A stretch of DNA of 64,000 bases, from the NCBI GenBank assembly GCA_947625155.1, contig CANQNG010000001.1:39148-103147 (forward strand), in the 5' to 3' direction. The translations under genes were made by a program, and so were the position numbers. The notes beneath the pieces were generated by a model. The model worked only from the letters and a program-made list of their open reading frames with translations. It had not been told where the DNA came from and made no database searches. The stretch is from an uncultured Clostridia bacterium (lineage in GTDB: Bacteria; Bacillota; Clostridia; Oscillospirales; Ruminococcaceae). Shown here piece by piece: positions 15,183 through 48,020 of this stretch (positions are counted from its first letter, which is position 1; each line of letters starts with the position of its first letter).

Positions 15183-15232
15183 ACGCCAAGCGTTTTCAGT
15201 TCACATAAATTATCAGAAAGAAGGCATTCACA

Positions 15233-16258: not shown

Positions 16259-16281
16259 CGGTCGGCAAGAGGCATTCCAAA

Positions 16282-16314
16282 GGCTGCATCCCGGAAAAGG
16301 ATACAGCCTTTTTT
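16282..16314 (+). terminator. Intrinsic terminator after ilvE
   Basis: 10-bp stem GGCTGCATCC / GGATACAGCC with one mismatch, 7-nt loop, then TTTTTT. Confidence 0.75.
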
Positions 16315-16333
16315 CATTCAGAAAGGAGAATCC

Positions 16334-17218: not shown

Positions 17219-17221
17219 AGA

Positions 17222-17247
17222 GAACGCCTCTCCGGGGGCGTTTTTTT
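17222..17247 (+). terminator. Intrinsic terminator after the yitT-like gene
   Basis: Stem AACGCC / GGCGTT followed by TTTTTTT. Confidence 0.7.
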
Positions 17248-17338
17248 GATCGGCAAACCTCACATCTGCGGCGGTATCCCGCATATTCCGGAATAGGTGG
17301 ACATACAATAGATCAGAACGGAAATGGGAGGGAACGCT

Positions 17339-19927
17339 ATGAAAGGACTTACCGCCGCACAGGCAAAGGAGCGTCTTGCCAAATATGGCAAAAATCAGCT
17401 CACTCAGGTCAGACCGCCCGGACCTGTGCGGATCTTCTTTTCACAATTCAAAGATGCCATGGTGCTGATCCTGCTGGCAGCCACGGCGATCTCAGCACTT
17501 CTCGGAGAGTGGACAGATGCCGTCACCATTGTCGTCATTGTGATCCTGAATGCTGTGCTTGGTTTCATTCAGGAATACCGGACGGAAAAGACCCTCGAAG
17601 CCCTGCGGAACATGACCGCACCGGCTGCAAAAGTCTGGCGGGACGGCGTGTTACAGGAACTTCCGGCAGAGGAACTTGTGCCGGGGGATGTGATCGCTCT
17701 GGAAGCAGGGGATCGCGTGCCGGCGGACTGCCTGCTGCTGCATGCCAGCCGTCTCTATGCCAACGAATCCATACTCACCGGAGAAGCCGAACCCATTGAA
17801 AAATGCCCCGGTATCGGCAAAACGGAGCTGAATGGTTTACACCTGCCGTACATCGTATACAGCGGCACAGCGATCACCCGTGGCACGGGCACGGCGGAAG
17901 TCACCGCAACCGGGAAAAATACACAGATGGGGCAGATCTCCGGTATGCTCTCCACGATCGAACGCTCCGAAACGCCCCTGCAAAAGCGCCTTGGGGAGCT
18001 TGGCAAAGTGCTGGCGTTCATTTGTATCGGCGTGTGCATAGCGGTTTTTGCGGCAGGTGTGCTGCGGGGCGAACCGGTGCTGGATATGCTGATGACGGGC
18101 ATTTCCATTGCGATCGCAGCCATTCCGGAAGGACTTCCGGCAACAGTCACGATCGCCCTTGCTCTTGCGGTCAGCAGGATGATGAAGCACAAGGCACTTG
18201 TCAACCGTCTGCACAGTGTGGAAACGCTTGGCTGTACGTCTGTTATCTGTTCTGACAAAACGGGGACGATCACCGAAAACCGTATGACCGTTACTCGTAT
18301 CGAAACAGCGGAACAGAGCTTTACCGTCAGCGGCAGTGCGCAGAAAATGGAGGGCGCCATTCTGGAAAACGGCAGGCATGTGGTGCTTTCCGGTATCCCG
18401 GCACTGCATGGGCTTCTGCGGTGTGCAGTGCTTTGCAACAACGGGGAACTGACGGCTGTCGGAAACGGTTCATGGACAGCAGTCGGAGACCCGACTGAAA
18501 CTGCCCTGCTTGCCGCAGCGGCAAAGGAAAGCGTTTCTGCCAAGACCCTTGGCTTCACCCGCATAGAGGAAGAACCATTCGAGAGCGACACCCGCTGCAT
18601 GGCTGTACTGGTGCGGAAAGGCAGGGAACGGCTTGTCTGTGCCAAGGGAGCTGTGGATGTGATGATCCGCCGGTGCAGCCATGTACGGACAAAAAACGGC
18701 GACATTCCGCTGACCTCTTCCCTTGAAAAAAACATCCTTGCCAAGGCAGAGGCACTTTCGGAGGAGGCACTTCGGGTGCTTGCCTTTGCGGAAAAGCCCT
18801 GCGGCAGTTTAGCCGAGAGCCGCAGCGGTATGGTGTTCCTCGGCTTGACAGGTATGCTTGACCCGCCCCGTCCGGAAGCCAAGGAAGCCATTCGCACCTG
18901 TGCGGCAGCTTCGGTACGGACTGTCATGATCACCGGCGACCACAAAAAAACAGCCGCTGCCATTGCCCGGAAAGCCGGACTGCTGCGGGGCGGGGAAGTC
19001 GTCACAGGGGATGAGCTTGACCTGATGACGGACGAACAGCTTGACCGGAGACTGCCGCATATTTCGGTATTTGCCCGTGTCGGTCCCTCGCACAAACTCC
19101 GGTTGGTGCGAGCATTCAAACGAGCCGGAAATATCGTCACCATGACAGGCGACGGTGTCAACGATGCCCCTGCCATCAAGGAAGCGGACGTGGGTGTTGC
19201 CATGGGTGCAAGCGGCACAGATGTTGCAAAACAGGCAGCAGATGTCATTTTAATGGATGACAACCTTGCCACCCTTGTCAGGGCAGTGGAGCAGGGGAGA
19301 TGTATTTATGCCAATATCCGAAAATTTGTCCGCTATCTGCTCTCCTGCAACATCGGGGAAGTGATCACCATGTTTTTGGGCATCCTGATGGGGATGCCGG
19401 TCGTCCTGCTGCCGGTGCAGCTTCTTTTGGTGAATTTGGCTACGGATGGCTTGCCGGCGATCGCACTCGGACTGGAGCCACCGGAAAAGAACCTGATGAA
19501 ACGCCCGCCCCGCAGACCGGACGAGAGCTTCTTTGCGGACGGACTGCTCAGCCGTATCGTATGGCGTGGTATCATGATCGGGCTGTGTACCTTGGGTTCA
19601 TTCAGTACAGCGCTGCGCTTTGGCGGTACACTCACGGAGGCAAGGACAGCAGCTTTGCTGACGCTGGTAGCTTCACAGCTCATCCACGTCTTTGAATGCA
19701 AATCCGAGCATGGCACACTGTTCCGGGTGCAGTATTTTTCCAACTGGAAGCTCATCGGTGCTGTGCTGGTGTCCGCCTTGATGATGGTGCTGACGATCTG
19801 GTTCCCGCCGATGCAGGGGCTTTTCTCGACAGCGCCGCTGTATGGAAAAATTCTCTGGCAGGCACTGGCATTTTCCTTTGCTGTGCCAATTTTTACCGCA
19901 GTCTTTGTCCCGAAAGAACGTACATAA
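17339..19927 (+). CDS. Cation-transporting P-type ATPase (Ca2+/SERCA-PMCA-like, YloB type)
   Basis: The ORF begins at 17324. The ATG at 17339 has good spacing from GGGAGGG. Phosphorylation motif CSDKTGTITENRM, TGES-type motif LTGEAEP, hinge MTGDGVNDAPAIKEADVGVAMG, PEGLP in M4, and about 10 TM segments. Confidence 0.92.
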   Translation: MKGLTAAQAKERLAKYGKNQLTQVRPPGPVRIFFSQFKDAMVLILLAATAISALLGEWTDAVTIVVIVILNAVLGFIQEYRTEKTLEALRNMTAPAAKVWRDGVLQELPAEELVPGDVIALEAGDRVPADCLLLHASRLYANESILTGEAEPIEKCPGIGKTELNGLHLPYIVYSGTAITRGTGTAEVTATGKNTQMGQISGMLSTIERSETPLQKRLGELGKVLAFICIGVCIAVFAAGVLRGEPVLDMLMTGISIAIAAIPEGLPATVTIALALAVSRMMKHKALVNRLHSVETLGCTSVICSDKTGTITENRMTVTRIETAEQSFTVSGSAQKMEGAILENGRHVVLSGIPALHGLLRCAVLCNNGELTAVGNGSWTAVGDPTETALLAAAAKESVSAKTLGFTRIEEEPFESDTRCMAVLVRKGRERLVCAKGAVDVMIRRCSHVRTKNGDIPLTSSLEKNILAKAEALSEEALRVLAFAEKPCGSLAESRSGMVFLGLTGMLDPPRPEAKEAIRTCAAASVRTVMITGDHKKTAAAIARKAGLLRGGEVVTGDELDLMTDEQLDRRLPHISVFARVGPSHKLRLVRAFKRAGNIVTMTGDGVNDAPAIKEADVGVAMGASGTDVAKQAADVILMDDNLATLVRAVEQGRCIYANIRKFVRYLLSCNIGEVITMFLGILMGMPVVLLPVQLLLVNLATDGLPAIALGLEPPEKNLMKRPPRRPDESFFADGLLSRIVWRGIMIGLCTLGSFSTALRFGGTLTEARTAALLTLVASQLIHVFECKSEHGTLFRVQYFSNWKLIGAVLVSALMMVLTIWFPPMQGLFSTAPLYGKILWQALAFSFAVPIFTAVFVPKERT

Positions 19928-34415: not shown

Positions 34416-36311
34416 ATGGACAGAATGGAAAAGGATCAGAACAGGCAGGAGATCTGTCTCAGAGATCTTCAGCTTCCGCAGGATCTGAAAAAACTGGATC
34501 TCTACCAGTGCCGCCGGCTGACAAAGGAGATACGGGGGATCTTGGTACGGACGATCTCTCATAACGGCGGACACCTTGCCTCGAATCTGGGTACGGTGGA
34601 GCTGACACTGGCGCTGCACAGGGTCTTTGAATCCCCACAGGACAAGTTCATCTGGGATGTCGGGCATCAGTGCTATACGCACAAGCTCCTGACCGGACGG
34701 CTGCATGAATTCTCCCATATCCGCAAGGAGGGCGGGATCTCCGGTTTCCCGAAACCGATGGAGTCGCCGCATGATGCCGTTATCAGCGGACACAGCAGCA
34801 CGTCTATTTCCAGTGCATGCGGTATTGCCGAGGCGATGCGGCTCAAGGGGGATACGCAGCACCGTGTCATTGCCATTATCGGTGATGGGGCATTTACCGG
34901 CGGACTTGCCTTTGAGGGGCTGAACAACGGCGGAAAGAAGAAGCTGCAAAATCTGATCGTGATACTGAATGACAACGATATGTCGATCTCCGGGAATGTG
35001 GGGGCAGTGTCTGGCTATTTGCGCTCTATCCGGGAAAGCGAGGGCTATGTCCGCCGCAAACAGGAGCTGGAGGGCAATCTGCGGAATACCCCTGTTGTCG
35101 GCATACCGACGATCAAGGTGCTGAAAAAGACAAAGGACAGCTTCAAAAGGATCGTGATCAAGCAGGCGACCATGTTTGAGCAGATGGGGTTTGTGTATCT
35201 CGGTCCGGTGGACGGGCACGACCAGCAGGAACTGGAGGATGTGCTCAATACGGCAAAGCGCTATGATGCGCCGGTGTTTATCCATGTCAAGACGATAAAG
35301 GGAAAGGGCTATCTCCCGGCAGAGAAAGATCCTACCCAATTCCACGGGGTGTCGAGATTCGATATTATGACGGGAAACCCGGAAGTTTCAGGTGATGACT
35401 GCTACTCGGCAGCCTTTGGCAAGGAGCTGACACGGCTGGCAGCAGAGGACAAGCGTATCTGTGCCATTACTGCTGCGATGGAATTCGGGACAGGCTTGCA
35501 GTATTTTGAAGCGGAGTTCCCGGAGCGCTTCTATGATGTGGGGATCGCCGAGCAGCATGCTGTCACTTTTGCGGCAGGGCTGGCAGCCTCGGGAGCGATC
35601 CCGGTGTTTGCGGTGTATTCCACATTTTTGCAGCGTTCCTTTGACCAACTGATACACGATGTGGCGATCGGCGGGCTGCATGTGGTGCTTGGCATCGATC
35701 GGGCAGGGTTTGTCGGGGAGGACGGCGAAACGCATCAGGGAACATTTGATGTTTCCATGCTGACAGCCGTGCCGGGCAGTGTGATCTATTCGCCGGTCGG
35801 CTATGAGGAACTGCGGCAGTGCCTGCGGCGTGCTGTCTTTGCGGAAACGGGGCTGGCAGCAGTCCGCTATCCGAGGGGCAGCGAAAAGGGGCTGACATTC
35901 CCGGGCAGACCGGAGACAAATTACAGCTTTATCGACGGGGAGTCGGATGTGCTGCTGATCTCTTACGGACGGGCTTTTGAGTCTCTCTGGCAGGCGCACT
36001 GCACGTGTGAAAAGATCGGCTACCGGACAAGTCTGCTGCGGCTGACGAGGATCTTCCCGGTGGAGGAGGATCTTGTGGAACAGGCGCTTTCCTACAGGAC
36101 GGTCATCTTCTTTGAAGAGGGCAGGGGATACGGCGGTATCTCGACCATTTTTGGTTCTTTGCTGGCACAGTACGGCTTCACGGGGCGGTTTGTGCGGGTA
36201 TCGGCAGACGGCTTTCAGAAGCAGGCATCCATGCCGGTACAGCTCGACAAGGCGGAGCTTTCTGCTCCGGCGGTGTGCCGCTATATCTACGCCTATGGCA
36301 CAAAGAGCTGA
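34416..36311 (+). CDS. dxs: 1-deoxy-D-xylulose-5-phosphate synthase
   Basis: 631 aa. GGHLASNLGTVELTLALHRVF, the ThDP motif IIGDGAFTGGLAFEGLNN...LNDN, and FYDVGIAEQHAVTFAAGLA. Confidence 0.95.
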   Translation: MDRMEKDQNRQEICLRDLQLPQDLKKLDLYQCRRLTKEIRGILVRTISHNGGHLASNLGTVELTLALHRVFESPQDKFIWDVGHQCYTHKLLTGRLHEFSHIRKEGGISGFPKPMESPHDAVISGHSSTSISSACGIAEAMRLKGDTQHRVIAIIGDGAFTGGLAFEGLNNGGKKKLQNLIVILNDNDMSISGNVGAVSGYLRSIRESEGYVRRKQELEGNLRNTPVVGIPTIKVLKKTKDSFKRIVIKQATMFEQMGFVYLGPVDGHDQQELEDVLNTAKRYDAPVFIHVKTIKGKGYLPAEKDPTQFHGVSRFDIMTGNPEVSGDDCYSAAFGKELTRLAAEDKRICAITAAMEFGTGLQYFEAEFPERFYDVGIAEQHAVTFAAGLAASGAIPVFAVYSTFLQRSFDQLIHDVAIGGLHVVLGIDRAGFVGEDGETHQGTFDVSMLTAVPGSVIYSPVGYEELRQCLRRAVFAETGLAAVRYPRGSEKGLTFPGRPETNYSFIDGESDVLLISYGRAFESLWQAHCTCEKIGYRTSLLRLTRIFPVEEDLVEQALSYRTVIFFEEGRGYGGISTIFGSLLAQYGFTGRFVRVSADGFQKQASMPVQLDKAELSAPAVCRYIYAYGTKS

Positions 36312-37077
36312 CATGGCGCTGGCGGAACGGGGGCTTTGCCGCAGCCGTTCTCAGGCAAAGCAGCGCATTACAGCCGGAGAAGTCCTCTGCAACGGCAAGC
36401 CGCTGTGTAAGCCTTCGGACATGGTGGAGGACACGGATGAACTGACTGTCACCGGAACGCATTTTGTCGGTAGGGGAGGACAGAAATTAGCCGGAGCGCT
36501 TGCTGTTTTCCCGGTCACGCCGGCAGGGAAGATCTGCATGGATGTGGGGGCTTCTACGGGCGGATTTACAGATTGTATGCTGCGCAGCGGTGCGGTAAAG
36601 GTCTATGCGGTCGATGTGGGACATGGTCAGCTGGAGGCATCCCTGCGGGGAGATGCACGGGTCGTGGATCTGGAGGGGACGGACATCCGGCGGCTGGAGC
36701 GTTTGCCGGATATGCCTGCGTTCTGCGGCATCGATGTATCCTTTATTTCCCTGAAACTGGTGCTGCCGGCGGTGTACAAGCTGCTGGCGGAACAGGCAGA
36801 CTGCATCGCACTCATCAAGCCGCAGTTTGAGGCAGGGCGGGCACATATCGGCAAGGGCGGCATCGTGCGTTCGGCAAGGGTCCACGTGCAGGTGCTTGGG
36901 GAAGTGCTGCGATCTGCGCAGGAAATGGGCTTTTCCGTGGAGGGGGTCTGCGTTTCCCCGATCCGGGGCGGGGACGGTAATACGGAATATCTGACATGTC
37001 TGCAAAAAAGTCCCGGCTGCCGGAAGCCCCTACCCGATCTGAAAACACTCACGGAAATGGCTGGTCTCAGGAGGTAG
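36295..37077 (+). CDS. tlyA: TlyA family rRNA 2'-O-methyltransferase (S4 + FtsJ domains)
   Basis: S4-like N-terminus (RADMALAERGLCRSRSQAKQRITAGEVLCNG) and SAM motif MDVGASTGGFTDCML. The start is either ATG 36295 (overlaps the dxs end by 17 nt and keeps the conserved R-x-D) or ATG 36313. Confidence 0.85.
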   Translation: MAQRADMALAERGLCRSRSQAKQRITAGEVLCNGKPLCKPSDMVEDTDELTVTGTHFVGRGGQKLAGALAVFPVTPAGKICMDVGASTGGFTDCMLRSGAVKVYAVDVGHGQLEASLRGDARVVDLEGTDIRRLERLPDMPAFCGIDVSFISLKLVLPAVYKLLAEQADCIALIKPQFEAGRAHIGKGGIVRSARVHVQVLGEVLRSAQEMGFSVEGVCVSPIRGGDGNTEYLTCLQKSPGCRKPLPDLKTLTEMAGLRR

Positions 37078-37080
37078 AAC

Positions 37081-37989
37081 ATGCTCAGGTTTGTGATCTA
37101 TCCGAATTTTCAGAAAAAAAATGCGCTTTCCTGTGTCCGGGAGGTATGCGGCAGGCTGCATCGGCTTGGCGGAGATGTCTGGCTCGATGAACGCTGCCGG
37201 GCAGCGCTGGCGGGCATCCCTTTTGTACACTACGGCGTATTCCGGGAGCTTACAGAACGGGCAGATATTGTCATTGCCATCGGCGGGGACGGGACGATCT
37301 TGCGCTGTGCCAAGAAAATGCTCCCGTCAAGCGCTGTGCTGCTCGGCATCAACACGGGGCATCTTGGCTTTATGGCTGGATTGGAAACGGAAGATCTGGA
37401 CGAGCTGGGCAGGCTGTTCCGGGGAGAATATTTTCTGTCGCAGCGGATGCTGATCGAGGGCAGGCTCACGGGCGGAGAACAGACGGTGTGCTTTACGGCG
37501 CTCAATGATATTGCCGTCTCGGGGATGTGCGGAAAGGTGTTCGATCTTTCTGTGCGGGCAGATCAGAAACTGATCGGGCGCTACCGGGCGGACGGTATGG
37601 TCTGCTCTACGCCGACGGGTTCGACTGCCTATGCGCTTTCGGCAGGCGGACCATTGCTCGAACCGGAGCTTTCCTGTATTGAGATCGCCCTGATCTGTCC
37701 GCATTCTCTGTTCAACCGTCCGGTGCTTCTCTCCAGTGACAGGCATATCACCGTGACACATACCGCTGAGGCAGCCAAACAGATCTGCCTGAGTGCGGAC
37801 GGCGAACCGCCGGTCGCTTTTCCGGCGGGATATGAGCTGGAGATCTGCCGTTCAAGGCACATGGTCAGTCTGGTCAGCCTGACGAGCGGCAGTTTTTACG
37901 ATGCCATCAACCGGAAACTGATGCAGTCTATCAAAGGATTTTCCGAGGAAGTGCAGGAGGGATACCATGAAACAGGCAAGACAGAATGA
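37081..37989 (+). CDS. nadK: NAD kinase
   Basis: 302 aa. GGDGTIL motif, NDIAV, and STPTGSTAYALSAGGP motif. Confidence 0.92.
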   Translation: MLRFVIYPNFQKKNALSCVREVCGRLHRLGGDVWLDERCRAALAGIPFVHYGVFRELTERADIVIAIGGDGTILRCAKKMLPSSAVLLGINTGHLGFMAGLETEDLDELGRLFRGEYFLSQRMLIEGRLTGGEQTVCFTALNDIAVSGMCGKVFDLSVRADQKLIGRYRADGMVCSTPTGSTAYALSAGGPLLEPELSCIEIALICPHSLFNRPVLLSSDRHITVTHTAEAAKQICLSADGEPPVAFPAGYELEICRSRHMVSLVSLTSGSFYDAINRKLMQSIKGFSEEVQEGYHETGKTE

Positions 37990-38404
37990 GATCATAGCGC
38001 TTGTGCGGCAGCAGCCTGTCGGCAATCAGGATGAACTGATGCTGCTGCTGAAAGAAAAGGGCTTCCCGGTGACACAGGCGACCATTTCGAGGGATATCCG
38101 GGAGCTGAAACTTGTCAAGCGTGCCGATGCGGACGGAAATTACAGCTACTGTCTGCCGGAACTGCCTGCACAGGAGGAAATGCTGATCGGCAACATTCTT
38201 TCGGTCGATCATGCGGGCAATACGGCTGTCATCAAATGCCGCCCCGGCACGGCACAGGCAGTCTGCACGGTGCTGGACAATATGCTCCGCCCGGAGATCG
38301 TGGGAACGCTGGCGGGGGATGATACCATTTTCGTGCTGGTGCGCACGGGCAGACAGGCAGAGAATTTCACGGCGGAGCTGAAACTGAAGCTCCGGAATGG
38401 GTGA
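37967..38404 (+). CDS. argR: Arginine repressor
   Basis: 145 aa. Winged-helix N-terminus (QNEIIALVRQQPVGNQDELMLLLKEKGFPVTQATISRDIRELKLVK) and C-terminal GTLAGDDTIFV motif. Confidence 0.93.
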   Translation: MKQARQNEIIALVRQQPVGNQDELMLLLKEKGFPVTQATISRDIRELKLVKRADADGNYSYCLPELPAQEEMLIGNILSVDHAGNTAVIKCRPGTAQAVCTVLDNMLRPEIVGTLAGDDTIFVLVRTGRQAENFTAELKLKLRNG

Positions 38405-38408
38405 GAGC

Positions 38409-40064
38409 ATGTTAGAAGAATTATACATCGAAAATTTGGCAGTCATTGAACAGGCACAGATCGCTTTCGGGGCTGCGTTCCATGTGTTTACCGGTGAGAC
38501 TGGTGCGGGTAAATCTATTCTGATCCATGGCATCCAAGCAGTGCTGGGGCAGCGTGTCTCAAGGGACTGGGTGCGCACGGGCTGCGACAGGGCACAGGTC
38601 ACGGCGCTGTTCACCGGACTTCCGGCGGGTGTGCTGCAGCTCCTGCGGGAAATGGACATTGCCTGCGATGAGGGGCAGATCACCTTATCCCGTGAGATCC
38701 GGGCAGACGGCGGCAGCATTGGCAGGATCAATGGAAAGACCGCTTCGGTCACGGCTTTGCGTGAGATCGGTACGCTGCTGATCTCCATTCATGGGCAGCA
38801 TGATAATCAGATCCTGCTTGCGCCGGAGCAGCATCTGGCGGTGCTGGATGCGTTCGGGGGGGATACCTCGTACCTAGAAGCCTATCAGCAGGCGTTCCGG
38901 GAGCTGCAAAGCACGGCTCGGGAGCTTGGCAGGCTGAAAAAAGAGGAGCAGCAGCGCCGGCAGCGCTCTGTTCTGCTGAAAAAACAGATCGAGGTGATCG
39001 GTGCGCTCGATCCCCGTGAGGGGGAGGAGGATGAACTGGAAAATGCCTTGATGCAGGCAGAAAATGCCGAGCATATCCTCTCTTCCCTGAATGGTGCGGC
39101 AGGCATGCTTGCCGGGGAGGAAGGCATCGTTGACCAGATCGAGGGGGCAGTCTCGCTGCTGCGGGAGATCGAGGATGTTTGTCAGACGGACGAGCTGACG
39201 GAGCGCCTGAAAGCGGCAGAGATCGAACTCAAGGACATCGCCGAGGAACTGACAGGCATGGCGGACGATGTGAACCTTGACGAGCAGCGTGCCGAGAAGC
39301 TGCGTGACCGCTATCATGCCATTTCTGCAGTGAAAAAGCAGTTTTTCTGTGACTTTGACGAACTGATCCGGATGTATGCAGATGCAAAGGCAGAGATGGA
39401 GACCATGCAGAGCGATATGAGCCGGATCCATGCGCTGGAGGAAAGAAAGGCAATGCTGCTTGCGGATGTGACCGAAAAGGCAAATGCACTCTCCGACTAC
39501 CGGGAGACAACGGGCAGACGGTTTGTGGAACGGGTCACGGAGGAGCTGCGGTTTTTGGACATGCCGGATGTGGTGCTGACCGTGCAGCATGAAAAGGGGA
39601 AGCTGACCATTCAGGGGCGGGACAGTGTTGTGTTCCTGATCTCTGCCAACAAGGGCGAAGCACCGAAGCCGATCGCAAAGATCGCATCCGGCGGTGAGCT
39701 TTCGAGGATCATGCTGGCGCTCAAGTCCGTCATTGCGGACAGGGACAGCATCCCGACGCTGATCTTCGACGAGATCGATACTGGTGTCAGCGGCAGAGCT
39801 GCCCAGAAGATCGGCATCAAGCTCCGGGAACTGAGCCGCAGCCGTCAGGTGCTGTGCGTAACGCATCTGTCACAGATCGCTGTCATGGCGGATACGCATT
39901 TCATGATCGAGAAGCACGAGGAAAATGCCCGCACTGTCACACAGGTGCATCTGCTGGATCTTGAGGGGCGTGTGGCGGAGATCGCCCGCATCATGGGCGG
40001 CGATGATCCGAGCGAACTCATGCGGGAGAATGCCCGGGAGGAGCTGCGGAAAGTTGGCATGTGA
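38409..40064 (+). CDS. recN: DNA repair protein RecN
   Basis: MLEELYIENLAVIEQAQIAF..., Walker A FTGETGAGKSI, a long coiled coil, signature ASGGELSRIMLALK, and Walker B LIFDEIDTGVSG. The ORF begins at 38397 and I prefer the ATG at 38409. Confidence 0.93.
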   Translation: MLEELYIENLAVIEQAQIAFGAAFHVFTGETGAGKSILIHGIQAVLGQRVSRDWVRTGCDRAQVTALFTGLPAGVLQLLREMDIACDEGQITLSREIRADGGSIGRINGKTASVTALREIGTLLISIHGQHDNQILLAPEQHLAVLDAFGGDTSYLEAYQQAFRELQSTARELGRLKKEEQQRRQRSVLLKKQIEVIGALDPREGEEDELENALMQAENAEHILSSLNGAAGMLAGEEGIVDQIEGAVSLLREIEDVCQTDELTERLKAAEIELKDIAEELTGMADDVNLDEQRAEKLRDRYHAISAVKKQFFCDFDELIRMYADAKAEMETMQSDMSRIHALEERKAMLLADVTEKANALSDYRETTGRRFVERVTEELRFLDMPDVVLTVQHEKGKLTIQGRDSVVFLISANKGEAPKPIAKIASGGELSRIMLALKSVIADRDSIPTLIFDEIDTGVSGRAAQKIGIKLRELSRSRQVLCVTHLSQIAVMADTHFMIEKHEENARTVTQVHLLDLEGRVAEIARIMGGDDPSELMRENAREELRKVGM

Positions 40065-40138: not shown

Positions 40139-41623
40139 ATGGACAACCGTACCATGATGCAGTATTTTGAATGGTATCTGCCGGATAATAGCTTGCTCTG
40201 GAACAGGGCAGCGGCACAGGCAAAGGCATTGCGGGAAGCAGGCATCTCGATGGTCTGGCTGCCGCCTGCCTATAAGGGGGCTTCCGGTGCAGAGAGCGTG
40301 GGGTATGATGTCTACGATCTGTATGACTTAGGGGAATTTGATCAGAAAGGCTCTGTGCGCACCAAATACGGTACCCGTGAGGAATATCTGACGGCGGTCA
40401 GGGCATTGCAGGAGCAGGGGATCTCCGTGCTGTGCGATGTGGTGCTGAATCACCGGATGGGTGCGGATGGCACAGAAGAGGTCGTGGTCGAGGAAGAACA
40501 GGCAAACGACCGGGATCAGGACATTGGCGGGAAACAGACGATCGTAGCTTGGACAAAATTTGATTTTCCGGGGCGGGCGGATGCCTATTCTGCATTCCAC
40601 TGGCATGCGGCGCATTTCAGCGGAGCAGACTGGGACGAGCGCAGCCGCCGGAACGGGATCTTCCGGTTTGACGGAAAGCATTGGAACGGGGAGACCGACA
40701 ATGAGAACGGGAATTATGATTACCTGATGGGGGTCGATCTGGACACAGATCATCCTGAAGTCATACAGGAAATGCAGGATTGGGGAAAATGGTATCTTGA
40801 CACGGTCAAGCCGGACGGACTGCGGCTGGATGCGGTCAAGCATATCGGGTTTGACCGCTACCGGCAGTGGATAGAAGCCATGCGTGCGCATGCCGGGGAA
40901 AAGGGACAGGATGATCTCTTCATTGTCGGTGAATACTGGAGCAACGAACTGGGAAAGCTGACACATTATCTGGATGTGACACAGCATGCGCTGGCGCTGT
41001 TTGATGTGCCGCTGCATTTTCATTTTTTGCAGGCAGCGACCTCGAATGGAAATTACGATATGCGGCAGTTGTTTGAGGGAACGTTCACCGGAACAGAGCC
41101 TGCTTACGCAGTGCCGTTTGTGGACAACCATGACACACAGCCGGGACAGGCACTGCAGTCGTTCATTCCGGCATGGTTCAAGCCGATCGCCTATGCGGTC
41201 ATTTTGTTGCGGGATGTGGGAACGCCGTGTGTATTCTACGGGGACTATTATGGCATTCCCCATGACGGTATCGCAGCCGTGCAGGGGCTGCGGACACTGC
41301 TGCAGGTGCGTAAGTCGTATGCCTACGGGACGGAGCATCTGTATTTTGACGATGCCTCTGTGGTCGGATTTACACGGGAAGGGGATGCGGAGCATGAACA
41401 TTCCGGTATAGCGGTACTCTTGAGCGACAGTGTCGGCGGCACAAAGCGCATGTATGTCGGGACGGCGCTAGCAGGTGCCTGCATGGTGGATGTGATGGGC
41501 AGGCGCAGAGAGTGCATACAGATCAGCGAGGATGGCTTCGGGGAATTTGCCGTGGACGGCGGTTCGGTCTCCGTCTGGGTACGTTTGGAGGCGGCTGCGG
41601 CATTGTTTATCGGGGAGACCTGA
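40139..41623 (+). CDS. Cytoplasmic alpha-amylase (GH13, Bacillus licheniformis/E. coli AmyA-like)
   Basis: 494 aa with no signal peptide. TMMQYFEWYLP, DVVLNHR, GLRLDAVKHI, VGEYW and FVDNHD are the four GH13 conserved regions. Confidence 0.9.
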   Translation: MDNRTMMQYFEWYLPDNSLLWNRAAAQAKALREAGISMVWLPPAYKGASGAESVGYDVYDLYDLGEFDQKGSVRTKYGTREEYLTAVRALQEQGISVLCDVVLNHRMGADGTEEVVVEEEQANDRDQDIGGKQTIVAWTKFDFPGRADAYSAFHWHAAHFSGADWDERSRRNGIFRFDGKHWNGETDNENGNYDYLMGVDLDTDHPEVIQEMQDWGKWYLDTVKPDGLRLDAVKHIGFDRYRQWIEAMRAHAGEKGQDDLFIVGEYWSNELGKLTHYLDVTQHALALFDVPLHFHFLQAATSNGNYDMRQLFEGTFTGTEPAYAVPFVDNHDTQPGQALQSFIPAWFKPIAYAVILLRDVGTPCVFYGDYYGIPHDGIAAVQGLRTLLQVRKSYAYGTEHLYFDDASVVGFTREGDAEHEHSGIAVLLSDSVGGTKRMYVGTALAGACMVDVMGRRRECIQISEDGFGEFAVDGGSVSVWVRLEAAAALFIGET

Positions 41624-41641: not shown

Positions 41642-42763
41642 TTAAGTCAGCTGATGCAGGAATACAAGTTCGTCAGTACCGCCGGTCAGCACTGTGTGCA
41701 GGTCGGCGATCATCGCCGCAGCCCCGGTCGTCTGCTGAAACAGGTTTTTCCCCGTACACCAGACAGCTCCATTTTGCACCGCCCGGAGATCGGCTAACAC
41801 GGGATCCTTGGCAAGCAGTTCATCCATGGTCTGCAATTCGCTGTCAATGGCACTGTTGTAGATCAGCACATCCGCATCCTTTGCCAGTTCGTAGAAGCGT
41901 TCTCTTTGGATATTCATTGTAGAAAGGGCATTTTCCTCGACATGGAGAGCTTCTGCCGTGAAACAGTACTGCCCCCCCGCAAGCTCGATCATCCGTGAGA
42001 TGTAATCCCCCGGCTTATGTACCGTTACATACCCGTTTGCCGAGATCGAAAAGAACGCAACGGTTTTCCGTTCCTCTTCCGGCGGGAGACTGGCAGTGAG
42101 CGTTTCAAATATTTCCGCCTGTTCCGAAAAGAACTGCTCCGCCTCGTCTGCTTTTCCGACCAGCAGCCCATACAGCCGCACCCATTCCATTCGCCCGAGC
42201 GGGTGTGTTTCGTAGCTGGAGCGTTCCGTCAGCACCGGAATGCCAAGCTGTTCCAATTGCTCACGTGTTTCGGGGCTGTGGTAGATCATGGTCGATTCGA
42301 TCGCCAGCGGACAGCCGAGCAGCATTTCATAATCGGGCGCACTGTACTTGCCGACATACTGCATCGAGCCGTCCGCAAGTGCCTCCTGTACGGCAGGCAA
42401 GCTCCAGTTGGCTTCACTGGTGGAAGTCATCGTCACCTTGTCAAGCGCCCCTATCCCGTCAAACAGATCCACCGCTGAGGACGCTGCCACATACAGATCT
42501 CTTAACGGAAGCTGTAAAACAACGCAGTCACCCGTTTCTGCCGGGATCTCCGCCCCCTCCGGCACAAGCAGATAGTCTGACCCGTCCGCAATGGTGACCT
42601 CCGCATAGCCGCCCTCAAAATAGTCCACTGCAAATTGCTCTGCATACCGCAGCTCCATGCTGCCTGTCTGTTTGAGTGAGGCAAGTGTTTCCGGCTGTGC
42701 AGGGGACGCAGCGCAGCCTGTCAGGCAAAGGCAGCCAAGCACAGCCCATATCAGCCGCTTCAT
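41642..42763 (-). CDS. Lipoprotein, ABC-type substrate-binding protein of the BtuF/FhuD/FecB (cluster A-II) class
   Basis: 373 aa. Lipobox signal MKRLIWAVLGCLCLTGC. Two-lobe periplasmic-binding-protein pattern (DLYVAASSAVDLF..., ..DYEMLL, DVLIYNSAID). The start overlaps the upstream gene's stop (ATGA). Confidence 0.8.
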   Translation of the reverse strand: MKRLIWAVLGCLCLTGCAASPAQPETLASLKQTGSMELRYAEQFAVDYFEGGYAEVTIADGSDYLLVPEGAEIPAETGDCVVLQLPLRDLYVAASSAVDLFDGIGALDKVTMTSTSEANWSLPAVQEALADGSMQYVGKYSAPDYEMLLGCPLAIESTMIYHSPETREQLEQLGIPVLTERSSYETHPLGRMEWVRLYGLLVGKADEAEQFFSEQAEIFETLTASLPPEEERKTVAFFSISANGYVTVHKPGDYISRMIELAGGQYCFTAEALHVEENALSTMNIQRERFYELAKDADVLIYNSAIDSELQTMDELLAKDPVLADLRAVQNGAVWCTGKNLFQQTTGAAAMIADLHTVLTGGTDELVFLHQLT

Positions 42764-43629
42764 TGAATGGTGGAAGGATCGAATGTCAGGGTATATTCGA
42801 TCTCATAGGGTGTACTCATGGCAGTGGTATCCGCTGTGACGGGCATCGGATAGCCGAACCCGTTCACCGGAATGGTGAACACGGAGACTGGGTCAAGCGA
42901 GTCCGGCTCGAAGCGTTCGCCGTCTACGGTCATGTAGTCATAATTCGGACTGCCCCATACAATTTCCGCAAAGGCTTTCCCGTCCGTGACCGTGAGCTTT
43001 GCGGGTGACTGCACAGTCGCCCGCCCGGAACCGCCGCTGACAGTGACTGCAACGGTATATGTCCCGTCTGCAAGCCCCAGATCTTCTGCACTTGTGACAT
43101 ACCCTTCGGCAAATGCTTCTGCTGGCAGGGAGTCCGCCCGAAACAGGATCGTCCGGTCATACCAGAGTTCTTTTTTCTTGCTGTAGGCAGCAAGCGGAAT
43201 GCCCATATCCAGCCCCTCCACCGGAACGGTAAAGGTATGCACCCCGTCCTCCGTTTCCACAAAGGGGATGCGGTCACTTTCGTCAGCGTTTGCGGCTTCT
43301 TCAGCCGTACCGGGATACACGTAAAGATACCCCGTGCCGCTCATCGTGAGAACGGCAGACATCGTGCCGTTTTCTACTGTCAGCGTGCAGGCAGTGATCT
43401 GGAACATGGTCGAACTGGAATCCACCGTCACCTCGTAGCTGCCGTCTTTGAGAAGATCTGCATAGACGGGTGTCATGCCATCTTCCACCACCTCGACCGG
43501 CGGGGCAGTGGCAGGTTCGGTGACAGAGGCAGTCTCTGCATCCGTTTCGGCAGGGGAGTGGTTTTCAGCGGGCGCAGTACAGCCTGTCAGCAAAGCGGCG
43601 AGCAGCAGGGGGAAAACTATTTTTTTCAT
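42760..43629 (-). CDS. Lipoprotein with two tandem beta-rich domains of unknown function (possibly NEAT-like)
   Basis: Trimmed from ORF 42760..43821 to the ATG at 43629, which follows GAGGAG. Lipobox MKKIVFPLLLAALLTGC and an acidic/Pro/Thr linker. Two homologous domains of about 105 aa follow (DGSYEVTVDSSS...LTVENGTMSAVL... and DGTYTVAVTVSG...LTVTDGKAFAEIV...). Confidence 0.7.
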   Translation of the reverse strand: MKKIVFPLLLAALLTGCTAPAENHSPAETDAETASVTEPATAPPVEVVEDGMTPVYADLLKDGSYEVTVDSSSTMFQITACTLTVENGTMSAVLTMSGTGYLYVYPGTAEEAANADESDRIPFVETEDGVHTFTVPVEGLDMGIPLAAYSKKKELWYDRTILFRADSLPAEAFAEGYVTSAEDLGLADGTYTVAVTVSGGSGRATVQSPAKLTVTDGKAFAEIVWGSPNYDYMTVDGERFEPDSLDPVSVFTIPVNGFGYPMPVTADTTAMSTPYEIEYTLTFDPSTIQ

Positions 43630-43694
43630 AGACAATCTCCTCTTGGATAAGAATTGTGGAAAAGGCGGCAGGGAGTTCCTTGCCGCCTTTCGCC

Positions 43695-44741
43695 TCAGTG
43701 CAGGGAATCTATGGCTGCCTGTGTATGTTCCGTGTAAAGCGTGCGGATGTCCTCGTTTTCCCCAAGTCCCCGCAGCAGGCACTCGACCTCGTAGCCCTCG
43801 TTGGCAAAGACGGTTTTCCACGAATCGGCTTCATCGCCTGCCATGTCATTGTTGGCATGGTCTCCGGCAACGACCATCAATGGCTCGAGCACGACACGCT
43901 TGTGATCTCCGGCATTCACGGCAGCAAGCACATCCTCCAGTGATGGCTCTGCTTCGACCGTGCCGATAAAATAATTTGTCTTTCCGGCATCTGTCAGCAT
44001 TTCCTGCATTTTTGCATAAACGCCGTTGGAGTCCGCTTCAGTGCCGTGTCCCATGAATACGATCGCCGTTTCGCCGTCATCGTAGTCAGCCGTCCAATCC
44101 GTGATCGCTGTGATCACCCGGTCAAAGTCATCCTCACTTGACAGCAGCGGTTCTCCGATCGCCACGTGTTCAAAAGCATCCGCATACTGTGCCACTTCTG
44201 CAGTCAGGTCATGGTATTCCAGACCGTTCATCAGGTGCGTAGGCTGTACGATCAGCGTTTTCACGCCATTGTCTACTGCCCGATCCAAGGCAGCTTGCAC
44301 ATCATCGATCAGGATGCCGTCCCGCTGCTGCACGTGGTCAATGATGATATTGGATGTAAAACCCCGGCGGACAGCATAGTCCGGGAATGCAGTCTCTATG
44401 GCATCTTCAATTGCCCCGATCGTCAGGCGGCGGCTGTCATTGAAACTTGTCCCGAAACTGATGACCAGAATTTCTTTCTCGCCGATCTCATCCTGATTGC
44501 GCACATTGTCCAGTGCAGCGTCTCCGGTGTTGTAGTTTTCCGCATCGTCTGCTTCGGGGGCAGAAGTTTCCGGTTCGGTGGGTGCTTCTGTTTCCGGTTC
44601 GGTGGGTGCTGCGGTCTCCGATTCCGTGGCAGCAGCAGTTTCCTCCGGGACAGAGCTGGAAGAAGTACTCGTTTCCGTGCTGCATCCGGTCAGCATGGCA
44701 GCCACACCCAGACACAGCAGGAGCTGTAATGTTTTCTTCAT
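43695..44741 (-). CDS. Exported (lipoprotein) CbiK-type sirohydrochlorin cobaltochelatase homologue
   Basis: Trimmed from ORF 43695..44999 to the ATG at 44741, which follows AAAGGA. Lipobox MKKTLQLLLCLGVAAMLTGC and a TEAPTEPE-type linker. The CbiK-fold core follows, with motifs ILVISFGTS, FMGHGTEA and VVAGDHANNDMAGDE..SWK. Confidence 0.8.
   Translation of the reverse strand: MKKTLQLLLCLGVAAMLTGCSTETSTSSSSVPEETAAATESETAAPTEPETEAPTEPETSAPEADDAENYNTGDAALDNVRNQDEIGEKEILVISFGTSFNDSRRLTIGAIEDAIETAFPDYAVRRGFTSNIIIDHVQQRDGILIDDVQAALDRAVDNGVKTLIVQPTHLMNGLEYHDLTAEVAQYADAFEHVAIGEPLLSSEDDFDRVITAITDWTADYDDGETAIVFMGHGTEADSNGVYAKMQEMLTDAGKTNYFIGTVEAEPSLEDVLAAVNAGDHKRVVLEPLMVVAGDHANNDMAGDEADSWKTVFANEGYEVECLLRGLGENEDIRTLYTEHTQAAIDSLH
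44566..44610 (-). repeat. Tandem 24-nt coding repeat (linker TEAPTEPE x2) inside the CbiK-like gene
   Basis: GTTTCCGGTTCGGTGGGTGCT occurs exactly at 44566-44586 and 44590-44610 (plus strand), giving a 24-nt period. It encodes the Pro/Thr/Glu linker. Confidence 0.8.
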
Positions 44742-44784
44742 GGAAAAATCATCCTTTCTGTAAGAGAAAGGTATTCCCGTCTGC

Positions 44785-44814
44785 AAAAAATGCTTCCTGC
44801 CGAAGCAGAAAGCA
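44785..44814 (-). terminator. Riboswitch expression platform: intrinsic terminator upstream of the CbiK-like gene
   Basis: On the minus strand: TGCTTTCTGC-TTCG-GCAGGAAGCA (10-bp stem with one G-U pair) followed by TTTTTT. It lies between the aptamer and the RBS. Confidence 0.75.
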
Positions 44815-44889
44815 CCGCAAACAGACTCTGCTTTCACAGAGCCTGCAACAGTACGATCAATACCTCGTGATCTGAGACTGCATGGCAGT

Positions 44890-45055
44890 CTCTGTACCCA
44901 TAAACGGCAGGTTTCCTGACTTGTGCATCTGCACGGCATACTTACCTTCCCGGTTAAAACCAGTGGCGCTGCAAGGCAGCACAGTATGACGCTCCGCATT
45001 CACAGTGACGAGATCGTACGACATTTGCAGTCGTTTCCCTTTTACCCTCCGCATG
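44890..45055 (-). promoter_or_regulatory. Cobalamin (B12) riboswitch aptamer
   Basis: The minus strand reads GGAGGGTAAAAGGGAAACGAC...GTCGT...CGTCACTGTG...AGCGCCACTGGTTTTAACCGGGAAGGTAAG...AAGTCAGGAAACCTGCCGTTTATGGG. The hallmark elements AGGGAA, CACTGT, the B12 box GCCACTG, GGGAAGG and AGTCAGGAAACCTGCC appear in the canonical order. Confidence 0.88.
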
Positions 45056-45119
45056 ACAAAGCACCGGAGGCACCGTTTACGTTGAAATATGCAATTATCC
45101 TATACCGGTATATACTGCT

Positions 45120-45148
45120 ATTATAGCAGAACTCTCTCCGGAATGCAA
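45120..45148 (-). promoter_or_regulatory. Sigma-A type promoter of the riboswitch-controlled lipoprotein operon
   Basis: On the minus strand: TTGCAT (45148-45143), 17-nt spacer, TATAAT (45125-45120). Confidence 0.7.
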
Positions 45149-45254: not shown

Positions 45255-48020
45255 TCATTCTGTCATCCTCATTCCGGTTTTCCCGGTGTTGTCCTGTCCG
45301 AGCAGATACCGCTGCATTGCCACAACATCGCCCACACCGGCGCTGCCATTTCCGTCACAGTCTGCGATCACATCCGCAGTACCGGAAAGTACGGCATATT
45401 TCAGGAGGGCAAGGTCGAAAGTGTCGATCATTTCGTTCCCGTCCATGTCGCCGACATAGAACGCCCTTACAGGCGGGAGGACTTCTTCGGTTTCCGTGTA
45501 ATAGTATTCCGGTTCGGCAACTTCCTTAAAGTTCACCCGGAAGAAGTCCATCGACCCGATAGATCCGCCGATCGTGTAGTCAGCTCCCGTGGAAATGACC
45601 TCCGCCGGGTCAAGTGTGACCGTTCCGGCAGCGGCTGTTTCCCCATTGACAACGAGCTTGGCATCGTCACCGCTCAGCACAAGGCTGACCGTTACCCACT
45701 CACCGTTGTTGTAGACATTCCCGGTAGTGAGAGTTTCCGCCTGTCCGTCTTTGGCAGCGATGAACGTGAAAGCACCGTCTTTCGCCGTCAGTGTCATATA
45801 GGTATCCGCATCCCCGAAGCGGAAGATCGTTCCGTTCCCCCGCATCAGGACTGCTGTCTGGTAATCGGCATCGTGCAGCGCCGCATAGGAGCTGTCTGCT
45901 ATCAGCTTCTGGTCGGTATCCGTAAAGGTGAGCACGCCCTTTCCACTTGTGCGGTCTTCCTCCCAGAGCGGTGTATTCAGGGCAGCCGCATAGGTGGAAG
46001 TGTAGGTATCGACAGCGATCCGGCTGCTGTCCTCTGTAAATTCCAGCCCGGCATACTGTCCGTCTGAATAAGGACGGCTGTTGACATAGGTGTCCGGGCT
46101 TGCCCAGCCATAGACAGAGCCCTGCGCCAGTGTCCGGCTCGAATCGTCATAGTAGTCGCCGTCTGCGATCGCCTGTCCGCCTGCTGCACCGTCAGCCATA
46201 CAGAAAGCCACGCCCTTGACGGAAGCATTTCCGCTGACGGCATAATTTCCATAGACCATACCGCTTTCGAGTACACGGGCATTTTCGGAAACGACCGCAC
46301 TGCCTGTTACACCTGCATAGTCGGCAACAATGGCATTATCTTTCACCTGTGCCCGTTCTGCCACAACGGCATGACCGGTCACAATGGCATTCCCGGAGAC
46401 CTGTGCGCTGTCCGTAACGGTCGCATAGCCGTCAATGACTGCATTCCCGGAAACCTTCGCATAGCCAAGTACCCGTGCGTTTTCGCCGACATAAACGCTG
46501 TCATCGACCTGCGCTGTGGCTGCCACAAAACCGCCGCCGTTCGGGTGATGGCTGCCTTGCAGCATGGCAGAACTGATCCGCTCCTGCTGTATCTCTGCCC
46601 CGTCCAGCGTGACCGCATAGGGGTAGCGTGTCTTACTCAAAAATGGCACATGATCTTCGTCAAATTCTCCCTCATTGTATGCCCACGGCACACCGACCTG
46701 CATCAGCGTTTCCGTATCGGGGGTAGCAGTGACGGTAAGATAAGCTTCCGCATCGGCTGCGGCATCATAGGGCATCGTGACCTGCTCTCCGGCTGAAAAC
46801 AGCTTGGAATAGCGTGTTTCGCCGTCCCGCTGCTTCACAACGATGCAGGCTCTCCAGTCCGCACCTGCCACATCTGTCAGACCCTCGAGTGTGACCGTGA
46901 TCGCATCCCCCTTGACGGCAAGCGGGATCAGGTTGATGCCGAACTGCTGCGGCGCACGTTCGGTCGGGACGGTGTAGAAATTCTCCCGTTCGCTGCTCTG
47001 TTCGAGAAGCGTGTAGATCTGTCCCCAGTTCCATGCACCGGAAGAAAGCAACTGTTCCTGCCGGGCAAGATAGCGTTCCTGCTGTGCAAGATCGAGGGTG
47101 GCAAGGCGCTTTGCATAGTTGCCGAGCGTTTCCTTGAGGTCTGCCCCTGAAAGGCGTTCGATCTCCAGATAGGGGTATTCATCGACCTCCCCCTGCTGCA
47201 TCATGGAGCGCATGAAGTCCTTGCCATAGCCGGGCAGACCGTCCGGGTTTTCCGTCAGGTACTGGAGAAATGCCCACGAGGCATAATTGTCTCGTCCCAA
47301 GATCGGCGTGAAGCAGAGGTTTTTCATATAGGTCTCAAAGTAGTCCGTACCGCTTGCCGGGTCTGTCACCCATTGGCTGTAATAGTCCGAATAGAGGAAC
47401 TGTTCTCTGTACCAGTTGCCGATAGATTCCCACCATGACTGCACATATTTATTGGCATTCCAGCCCCGCTGGTGCGCTGTCACAACGTGTCCGAATTCAT
47501 GCGGCAGCACCCATGAGGGATTCGGGCTGTTCTGCATCGCACCCACGCAGCAGAACATATAGGCAAAGCCCTCTCTGTCATACGCCATGTATGCCCAGTC
47601 ATCCGTAAAGCCATCCAGCCCTGTGCCGGAAATGTAGAAATTGACCTTGTACTGGTTCCCGTCCCGGAGCGCAAGGTCAACGGACTGCGTAGGCGGTTCC
47701 ATTTGCAGGTCGTCCATGTACACGGCATAGCAGGCTTCGAGGTGTGCGGCATTTTCCTGTAGAAATGCCTCTGTGACCTGTGCGGAATCCGCACCGTTCT
47801 TTCCCCAGATGAACTGAAAATGCTCCGATCCCCAGCGTTCCACATCCTGTCCGCTGCAAAGGACATCCCTTGTTTTCAGCGCATCTGCCTGTACCTGTAC
47901 GGCATCCGTCGTGCCGAGTTGGATCGCCTGTGCCGGAACAGCCCCCGTGCCGAAGCACATTGCCGCCGCACAGACCCCGGCGGCAATACGCCGCCAATGT
48001 TTGTGGTCGCTCATCTTCAT
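45255..48020 (-). CDS. Secreted dockerin-containing multidomain protein: HExxH (zincin-like) domain + beta-helix repeats + LamG-like domain + type-I dockerin
   Basis: 921 aa. Signal peptide ...CFGTGAVPAQA. HEFGH at residues 174-178 (nt 47487-47501). 18-residue repeats VSGNAVIDGYATVTDSAQ / VSGNAIVTGHAVVAERAQ / VKDNAIVADYAGVTGSAV / VSENARVLESGMVYGNYA (about nt 46206-46523). C-terminal dockerin duplicated Ca-binding segments GDMDGNEMIDTFDLALLKYAVL and DCDGNGSAGVGDVVAMQRYLLG (nt 45291-45458). Confidence 0.85.
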   Translation of the reverse strand: MKMSDHKHWRRIAAGVCAAAMCFGTGAVPAQAIQLGTTDAVQVQADALKTRDVLCSGQDVERWGSEHFQFIWGKNGADSAQVTEAFLQENAAHLEACYAVYMDDLQMEPPTQSVDLALRDGNQYKVNFYISGTGLDGFTDDWAYMAYDREGFAYMFCCVGAMQNSPNPSWVLPHEFGHVVTAHQRGWNANKYVQSWWESIGNWYREQFLYSDYYSQWVTDPASGTDYFETYMKNLCFTPILGRDNYASWAFLQYLTENPDGLPGYGKDFMRSMMQQGEVDEYPYLEIERLSGADLKETLGNYAKRLATLDLAQQERYLARQEQLLSSGAWNWGQIYTLLEQSSERENFYTVPTERAPQQFGINLIPLAVKGDAITVTLEGLTDVAGADWRACIVVKQRDGETRYSKLFSAGEQVTMPYDAAADAEAYLTVTATPDTETLMQVGVPWAYNEGEFDEDHVPFLSKTRYPYAVTLDGAEIQQERISSAMLQGSHHPNGGGFVAATAQVDDSVYVGENARVLGYAKVSGNAVIDGYATVTDSAQVSGNAIVTGHAVVAERAQVKDNAIVADYAGVTGSAVVSENARVLESGMVYGNYAVSGNASVKGVAFCMADGAAGGQAIADGDYYDDSSRTLAQGSVYGWASPDTYVNSRPYSDGQYAGLEFTEDSSRIAVDTYTSTYAAALNTPLWEEDRTSGKGVLTFTDTDQKLIADSSYAALHDADYQTAVLMRGNGTIFRFGDADTYMTLTAKDGAFTFIAAKDGQAETLTTGNVYNNGEWVTVSLVLSGDDAKLVVNGETAAAGTVTLDPAEVISTGADYTIGGSIGSMDFFRVNFKEVAEPEYYYTETEEVLPPVRAFYVGDMDGNEMIDTFDLALLKYAVLSGTADVIADCDGNGSAGVGDVVAMQRYLLGQDNTGKTGMRMTE

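Follow-up and report, generated by a model that had tools for sequence, protein, structure and literature searches.

A trio of surface lipoproteins behind a cobalamin riboswitch as a candidate front end for corrinoid acquisition in Clostridia

We analysed a 64-kb window of DNA from an uncultured Clostridia bacterium (the window is this whole stretch), in which a cobalamin riboswitch precedes three genes for exported lipoproteins: a CbiK-fold protein (g1), a tandem NEAT-like protein (g2) and a class-III solute-binding protein (g3). The reading that we favour, and to which we give slightly better than an even chance, is that this locus is the extracellular front end of a Clostridia-wide corrinoid-acquisition system, i.e.: an Isd-style surface relay feeding a BtuCD-type importer. 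This reading is built on the riboswitch, the export signals, the folds of the three proteins, the gene order, gene fusions, the linkage to B12 genes and purifying selection. The identity of the ligand, the direction of the hand-off and the role of g1 (binding only, or catalysis as well) are what we infer from these.

In the mechanism that we propose, low intracellular adenosylcobalamin would make the riboswitch let transcription past a terminator, and the three surface-tethered proteins would be produced. Outside the cell, g2 and g1 would bind cobalt tetrapyrroles, most likely cobamides and incomplete corrinoids (cobinamide, cobyric acid), and would pass them to the IsdE-like g3, in a manner similar to the transfer of haem from NEAT proteins to IsdE. 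g3 would then dock on a BtuCD-type importer of the FecCD/ABC (ATP-binding cassette) kind, encoded directly downstream in most species.

Riboswitch, gene order and neighbouring cobalamin genes

Across the whole 64 kb, Rfam reported a single structured RNA, a cobalamin riboswitch (RF00174) on the minus strand ahead of the trio. The match, with a score of 97.3 bits where the gathering score is 31.5 (E = 4.8e-23), covered positions 1-189 of the 189 of the model; the first-pass annotation, made from the letters alone, had called a B12 riboswitch here, and the covariance model bears it out.

Scanning one genome per GTDB species, we found the operon in at least 552 species-level Clostridia genomes, and fetched 80 of these loci (L numbers below), among them those of the cultured R. 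flavefaciens FD-1, Butyricicoccus porcorum, Evtepia gabavorous, C. asparagiforme and Enterocloster lavalensis. Close homologues of g2 number more than 4,600 in a protein set clustered at 90%, the majority in genomes and metagenome-assembled genomes of Oscillospiraceae, Ruminococcus and Lachnospiraceae, and the g2 family comprises 2,512 protein clusters at 50% identity. We labelled the open reading frames (ORFs) of the relatives with phmmer and compared gene order in the 63 loci whose flanks were long enough. In 57 of them CbiK is followed by g2, the binding protein, the FecCD permease and the ABC ATPase, in this order. To follow the riboswitch in the relatives we used an nhmmer profile seeded with the window element; in 70 of the 73 loci with upstream sequence it lies directly 5' of the CbiK gene, across families, and Rfam upheld the nhmmer call in 10 out of 10 related loci rechecked, the weakest matches included. 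Two loci labelled Eubacterium sp. and one from an uncultured Lachnospiraceae (L053, L058 and L083) carry the same genes with a more diverged CbiK (266-285 bits vs about 400).

The genes are also fused in some relatives. Single ORFs joining CbiK and g2 occur in L066, L078, L087 and P0147, and single ORFs joining g2 and the binding protein in L064, L072, P0126, P0127 and P0264, which supports the view that the three proteins would work together. A hand-off to a transporter, as had been proposed for the window, is thus in line with the relatives: the FecCD permease and ABC ATPase genes directly follow, and the fusions link the three proteins to each other.

We then clustered the ORFs in the flanks (10 kb) and checked the recurrent neighbour families with Pfam. 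These were CbiC, CbiD, the CbiF/H/L methyltransferases, CbiG, CbiJ, CobQ and CobT, plus one unrelated ABC ATPase; none of the recurrent families checked was a haem-degradation or iron-regulation gene. Genes for cobalamin biosynthesis or salvage (cbiC/D/F/G/H/J/L, cobQ or cobT) lie within 8 kb in 29 out of 82 loci. In seven loci (L012, L020, L024, L038, L048, L064 and L066; in L048, for example, at 14179-19232) the gene for the ATPase adjoins or overlaps cbiD, both being on one strand behind a single riboswitch, and by this arrangement the surface and transport genes are predicted to be the 5' portion of a cbi operon under riboswitch control. In six others, cobQ comes directly after the ATPase gene, on the same strand behind the single riboswitch, sometimes with cobT. 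L036 has back-to-back cobalamin riboswitches, at 7370-7556 (-) and 8164-8364 (+) (98 and 104 bits), one facing cbiC-D-F-G-H-J and the other facing the operon of CbiK, the NEAT-like protein and BtuFCD. No fetched locus held a second CbiK/CbiX-family ORF (jackhmmer) or a CbiM-motif ORF (motif search), negatives that are weak because the flanks span only 10 kb. The observation named beforehand as pointing to haem, trios consistently lacking riboswitches and sitting next to haem or iron transporters, is not what we found: the riboswitch is there in 70/73 loci, and cobalamin genes are near in 29/82.

The three exported proteins

All three products open with K/R residues, a hydrophobic stretch and L-T-G-C, with the lipoboxes AAMLTGC (g1), AALLTGC (g2) and LCLTGC (g3). 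Lipobox and signal-peptide calls were made with a heuristic motif rule, under which lipobox signals were found in 73/77, 69/78 and 64/73 homologues of g1, g2 and g3, respectively. Those homologues without a lipobox that we inspected still have N-terminal signal peptides, and the lipobox Cys is invariant in the g2 alignment. The first-pass prediction of three lipoproteins is therefore matched by the lipoboxes in the window and by export signals conserved in homologues, within the reach of the heuristic. A few Lachnospiraceae have signals of the signal-peptidase-I type instead (...AMA/DE, ...VQA/EE), seen for CbiK in L074, L076 and L060 and for g2 in L074 and L076; these versions would be secreted, hemophore-like forms.

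g1 matches Pfam CbiK (PF06180) with 278 bits over residues 89-344 (gathering score 26.2), and this domain sits behind a linker rich in Ser, Thr, Pro and Glu. Against the PDB, it matched 1qgo (CbiK, 4e-44), 9b86 (FetB, 4e-43) and 2xvx (CbiK(P), 2e-37), so that among solved structures it is about equally near to Salmonella CbiK, the outer-membrane FetB/IhtB of Porphyromonas gingivalis and the periplasmic CbiK(P) of Desulfovibrio vulgaris. Its motifs FMGHG, TVE and GDHA line up with the catalytic, metal-binding His/Glu/His in the 1qgo sequence, presumably His145, Glu175 and His207 in the numbering of S. enterica CbiK, and the triad is kept in all 77 exported homologues save for one E-to-H change. 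A CbiK fold that keeps its active-site His blocks, tethered behind a Pro/Thr/Glu linker, is what had been described from the sequence at the outset. The score against NCBIfam SiroCoChCbiK (NF047852) is 238 bits, under the cutoff of 400. With this sub-cutoff score, a lipobox signal and linker, and homologues fused to extracellular partners, g1 falls outside the equivalog of the biosynthetic CbiK enzyme. Its predicted CbiK tetrapyrrole cleft makes tetrapyrrole binding plausible.

No family in Pfam or NCBIfam was above threshold for g2. Pfam NEAT (PF05031) gave 20.6 bits, under its gathering score of 32.8; the relatives score 22-32 bits against it, and many nonetheless carry a precomputed PF05031 tag. 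The AlphaFold model (33 homologues; mean predicted local distance difference test score, pLDDT, of 82) has two beta-sandwich domains, at about residues 55-165 and 185-289, and its two halves derive from an old internal duplication (28% identity between them, E = 4e-4). When the model was compared to the PDB with Foldseek, all significant matches were haem-binding NEAT domains: IsdH-N2N3, IsdB, IsdX1, IsdX2-N5, Hbp2-N2 and IsdH-N3. For the last four the probability was 1.00, with target-normalised template-modelling (TM) scores of 0.64-0.70, and the identity of g2 to IsdX1 was 22%. The predicted model has the eight-stranded beta-sandwich that defines NEAT domains. Hence the duplicated, beta-rich architecture first noted for g2 holds, yet its assignment to an unknown family does not: with NEAT domains as the only matches in the PDB, g2 is not a protein of unknown fold and is, as judged from its model, a divergent tandem NEAT-like lipoprotein.

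In the window protein, the last strand of domain 2 reads YEIEY where NEAT domains have the iron-ligating YxxxY, a position that we placed from the model's secondary structure together with a partial alignment to IsdX1, not from coordinates. Across relatives the motif is [H/Y]xxxY, and where the iron-ligating Tyr would fall, His occurs in 64/81 and Tyr in 10/81. In domain 1, KxxxY is invariant and the lip, SSSxMF, is rich in Ser; the lip region of domain 2 is GGSG[R/K]. The NEAT matches of the model and the residues at this position in domain 2 make tetrapyrrole binding plausible for g2 as well.

Some relatives of g2 are giants (P0121, P0123, P0125, P0133 and P0248) with 5-11 tandem copies of the domain-1 type. 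The largest, P0121, holds 11 g2-type domains in 1,965 residues and resembles multi-NEAT hemophores. These multi-repeat proteins look scavenger-like, and their architecture suggests the capture of a scarce, ready-made ligand. Additional g2-like genes occur elsewhere: in L081, a single-domain paralogue of 196 residues with an N-terminal hydrophobic segment (7545-8135, +) has two ABC exporter-like genes as neighbours, on the upstream side of the riboswitch and outside it, and L058 has a second g2-like gene of 393 residues (16767-17948).

g3 matches Pfam Peripla_BP_2 (PF01497) with 112.6 bits; it had no match among NCBIfam families and, as a single sequence, matched no solved structure. A profile made from 26 orthologues matched only two solved structures at E <= 0.01, Lmo2184 (3.4e-10) and IsdE (1.9e-3), and solved BtuF gave no match to this family profile at the same threshold. 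In the Isd system it is IsdE that binds haem, and its counterpart in the NEAT-protein locus of Listeria is Lmo2184. At the position aligned with the haem ligand of IsdE, His229, the g3 family has Asn or Ala. The first-pass label of a class-III protein of the BtuF/FhuD type therefore stands for the class and not for the BtuF likeness: by sequence, g3 resembles IsdE and not BtuF. The riboswitch and the cbi/cob gene context suggest that g3 would bind a corrinoid.

The window locus and its missing importer genes

Table 1. Features of the trio locus and its flanks in the window
Feature	Position	Strand	Basis or remark
921-residue secreted protein with DUF6055 and LamG domains	45255-48020	-	Pfam
Promoter-like site, TTGCAT-17-TATAAT	45120-45148	-	Read from sequence; predicted function
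Cobalamin riboswitch aptamer	44889-45092	-	RF00174, full-length model
Intrinsic-terminator-like hairpin with U6	44785-44813	-	Hairpin search and folding
Second small hairpin, CCUUUCU-CUUAC-AGAAAGG	44753-44771	-	Overlaps g1 Shine-Dalgarno, just past terminator
g1, exported CbiK-fold lipoprotein, 348 residues	43695-44741	-	Shine-Dalgarno-supported start
g2, tandem NEAT-like lipoprotein, 289 residues	42760-43629	-	Shine-Dalgarno-supported start
g3, class-III (Peripla_BP_2) solute-binding lipoprotein, 373 residues	41642-42763	-	Shine-Dalgarno-supported start
Alpha-amylase, convergent with the trio, no signal peptide	40139-41623	+	Next gene past g3

Ahead of the aptamer is a promoter-like site with a perfect -10 hexamer, preceded by TGC (extended -10). 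Its -35 hexamer agrees with the consensus at only three of six positions; because of this weak hexamer the site was not listed by the consensus scanner, and the term consensus promoter, used in the first-pass annotation, is too strong for a site that is otherwise present as described. About 75 nucleotides 3' of the aptamer lies a GC-rich terminator-like hairpin, GCUUUCUGC-UUCG-GCAGGAAGC, followed by U6. Its stem is found in the minimum-free-energy fold and in the centroid fold alike, and the leader folds better than its shuffled counterparts (z = -4.1). This hairpin is likely the expression platform of the riboswitch, and the second hairpin, over the Shine-Dalgarno sequence of g1, may add a layer of translational control.

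Longer ORFs for g1 (434 residues) and g2 (353 residues) were rejected: they extend as far as the riboswitch or the gene upstream, and have no starts supported by a Shine-Dalgarno sequence. The stop of g2 and the start of g3 overlap by four nucleotides (ATGA), and 18 nucleotides separate the g3 stop from the convergent alpha-amylase gene. The terminator with its U tract, the ATGA overlap and the amylase as next gene were all found as first described. On the other side, the C-terminus of the 921-residue protein looks dockerin-like by eye (DMDGNEMIDTFD...DCDGNGSAGVGD), with no dockerin reported by Pfam, which suggests a cellulosome-type Oscillospiraceae host. The gene for this same protein adjoins the trio in L008 too.

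Nowhere in the 64 kb is there a gene for a FecCD permease or a partner ATPase. An ABC match at 5239-7146 was considered as the partner ATPase and discarded, being an ABC-F protein. Loci that end after the binding protein are confined to the window genome (identical copies L001-L005) and the 91%-identical L008; among the orthologues of g3, the FecCD and ABC ATPase partner genes follow in 57/63 loci and at the window locus neither does. Other departures from the common order are known: in L017 the transporter genes precede the riboswitch and lie on the opposite strand, L076 is without a binding-protein gene, and L078 has the CbiK-g2 fusion only. The absence of a permease and an ATPase, correctly reported for the window, is thus not a trait of the system, as relatives have both (57/63); it is a derived loss in this lineage.

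The ratio of non-synonymous to synonymous substitution rates (dN/dS) between the window and L008, which also has no importer genes, is 0.14 for g1, 0.11 for g2 and 0.07 for g3. The trio has therefore been kept by selection without adjoining importer genes. With these genes lost from the operon, the trio must use an importer encoded elsewhere or serve as a surface store.

A block of dxs, NAD kinase, argR and recN genes (34416-40064) lies 3' of the trio in the window and 5' of the complete five-gene operon in L022 (Butyricicoccus porcorum). This placement hints at a shared ancestral neighbourhood and a rearrangement.

Alternative readings and relation to known systems

Several observations weigh against corrinoid acquisition. 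The nearest solved relatives of all three proteins (FetB, CbiK(P), NEAT domains and IsdE) are linked to haem or porphyrins, and no similarity of the trio proteins to BtuF, BtuG, BtuH or BtuJ was detected. The window holds no importer gene to end the relay, and three loci (L053, L058 and L083, checked with Rfam) have no riboswitch. A purely binding role for g1 leaves the strict conservation of the chelatase triad unexplained. Moreover, a riboswitch-controlled, BtuF-like ABC system, CbtJKL, imports Co(II) and not B12 (PMC7689651).

The triad, not required by simple binding, keeps alive a reading in terms of cobalt, which we regard as rather unlikely. Here, the exported CbiK would put Co(II) into an extracellular tetrapyrrole (sirohydrochlorin or a porphyrin), which the NEAT-like and IsdE-like proteins would carry to the FecCD/ABC importer; the cell would thereby gain cobalt for making B12 de novo, or even an intermediate of that pathway. 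Cobalt transporters are frequently found at the head of cbi operons, and in at least seven loci the module occupies this place, as the 5' portion of a cbiD-L-F-G-H-J operon under riboswitch control. The NEAT and IsdE relatives have planar metalloporphyrins as ligands, and P. gingivalis FetB, itself an exported CbiK homologue, inserts Co and Mn into porphyrin in vitro (PMC13065792). CbtJKL is a precedent for cobalt import under this type of control, and the fetched loci have no second CbiK/CbiX-family or CbiM-motif ORF, although the absence of cbiK, cbiX and cbiM from 10-kb flanks is weak evidence. Yet there is no evident extracellular source of a metal-free tetrapyrrole, and the operon has neither an exporter gene nor a dechelatase to free the cobalt. 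Besides, 53 of the 82 loci, the window included, are not near cbi genes, and the six loci joined to the late or salvage genes cobQ and cobT fit corrinoid salvage better, while the multi-repeat relatives of g2 point to a ligand that is scarce and ready-made. That the exported CbiK is an active extracellular cobalt-inserting enzyme, whose product the NEAT-like and IsdE-like proteins shuttle to an importer, is a claim that we hold to be quite unlikely.

Haem relatives are the strength of another proposal, uptake of haem or porphyrin (iron) by an Isd- or Iht-like system in which the B12 riboswitch is incidental or a case of cross-regulation. The closest characterised relatives are indeed haem-linked (NEAT hemophores; IsdE and Lmo2184; FetB/IhtB and D. 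vulgaris CbiK(P)), and domain 2 of g2 retains [H/Y]xxxY at the position of the haem-ligand motif. However, the cobalamin riboswitch is kept in 70/73 loci across families, the recurrent neighbours are cobalamin genes, with no haem-degradation or iron gene among those checked, the position of IsdE His229 is Asn or Ala in the g3 family, and g2 stays under the Pfam NEAT gathering score; we deem this proposal very unlikely. Finally, the trio could be a decaying remnant, functionless in the window genome after the loss of permease and ATPase, as the lack of both in the 64 kb and the mere 18 nucleotides between the g3 stop and the amylase gene would allow. Against such decay, the three frames are intact, with export signals and Shine-Dalgarno sequences, the window riboswitch scores as well as those of relatives, dN/dS is 0.07-0.14 against L008, itself without importer genes, and other split or partial arrangements are known (L017, L076, L078). 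We judge a remnant highly improbable.

Competition for B12-type cofactors shapes gut and rumen communities, and surface capture machinery is known only for Bacteroidota. A September 2026 review calls extracellular cobamide capture in Gram-positive Firmicutes 'entirely uncharacterized' (PMC13616437). In the literature we found no description of NEAT-like or exported CbiK proteins in a riboswitch-controlled B12 operon of Firmicutes, and older comparative-genomics papers may list the genes. The locus is a candidate Gram-positive capture system, and several of its carriers can be cultured. If NEAT-fold and CbiK-fold proteins do bind corrinoids, this would be a new class of ligand for two well-studied haem and chelatase folds; it would also explain exported CbiK homologues found beside ABC importers in distant phyla and provide markers to predict B12 scavenging in Firmicutes. 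Should the chelatase instead work extracellularly, this would be a new route of cobalt acquisition, with many Clostridia taking cobalt or entering the B12 pathway through a pre-chelated macrocycle, and a step of cobalamin metabolism outside the cytoplasm without characterised precedent.

Among known systems, the Isd relay (S. aureus IsdH/B/A/C to IsdE to IsdF; B. anthracis IsdX1/X2; Listeria Hbp2 and Lmo2184) shares surface or secreted NEAT folds, sometimes in many repeats, placed ahead of a binding lipoprotein of class III and an ABC importer of the FecCD type. The likeness extends to the proteins themselves, the g2 fold matching IsdX1, IsdX2-N5, Hbp2-N2 and IsdH-N3 and the g3 profile matching Lmo2184 and IsdE. 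In contrast to Isd, the system described here is under a cobalamin riboswitch and linked to cbi/cob genes, and it shows no sign of iron control, of a sortase, of a cell-wall anchor or of a haem oxygenase. Its g2 is a lipoprotein below the Pfam NEAT threshold, with a GGSG[R/K] lip in domain 2 and mostly His at the axial-ligand position, its exported CbiK is an extra member, and the ligand position His229 of IsdE is not conserved in g3.

BtuFCD and the corrinoid relay of Bacteroides (BtuG, BtuH, BtuJ, BtuK and BtuB) resemble it in another way: a riboswitch operon with several surface lipoproteins ahead of a BtuCD-type importer, presumed to capture corrinoids in the same setting, the competition for cobamides in the gut. 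Here, however, we detected no likeness in sequence or fold to BtuG, BtuH or BtuJ, the Gram-positive host lacks an outer membrane and BtuB, and the parts have CbiK and NEAT folds. An exported CbiK with its catalytic residues beside a binding protein, a FecCD permease and an ATPase is also found in IhtABCDE of P. gingivalis (IhtB/FetB) and in CbiK(P)/btuCDF of D. vulgaris; in Desulfovibrio one B12 element governs cbiK-cbiL plus btuCDF (PMC545781). Those systems are Gram-negative, have no NEAT-like partner and have been read as related to haem or iron (dechelatase, Mn-porphyrin synthesis). CbtJKL of Sinorhizobium meliloti has the ABC importer, the BtuF-like binding protein and the adenosylcobalamin riboswitch, and differs in being shown to import Co(II) and in having no chelatase-like or NEAT-like accessory proteins (PMC7689651). 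Set beside these, the present system is a new combination of known folds, widespread in Clostridia and testable in cultured strains.

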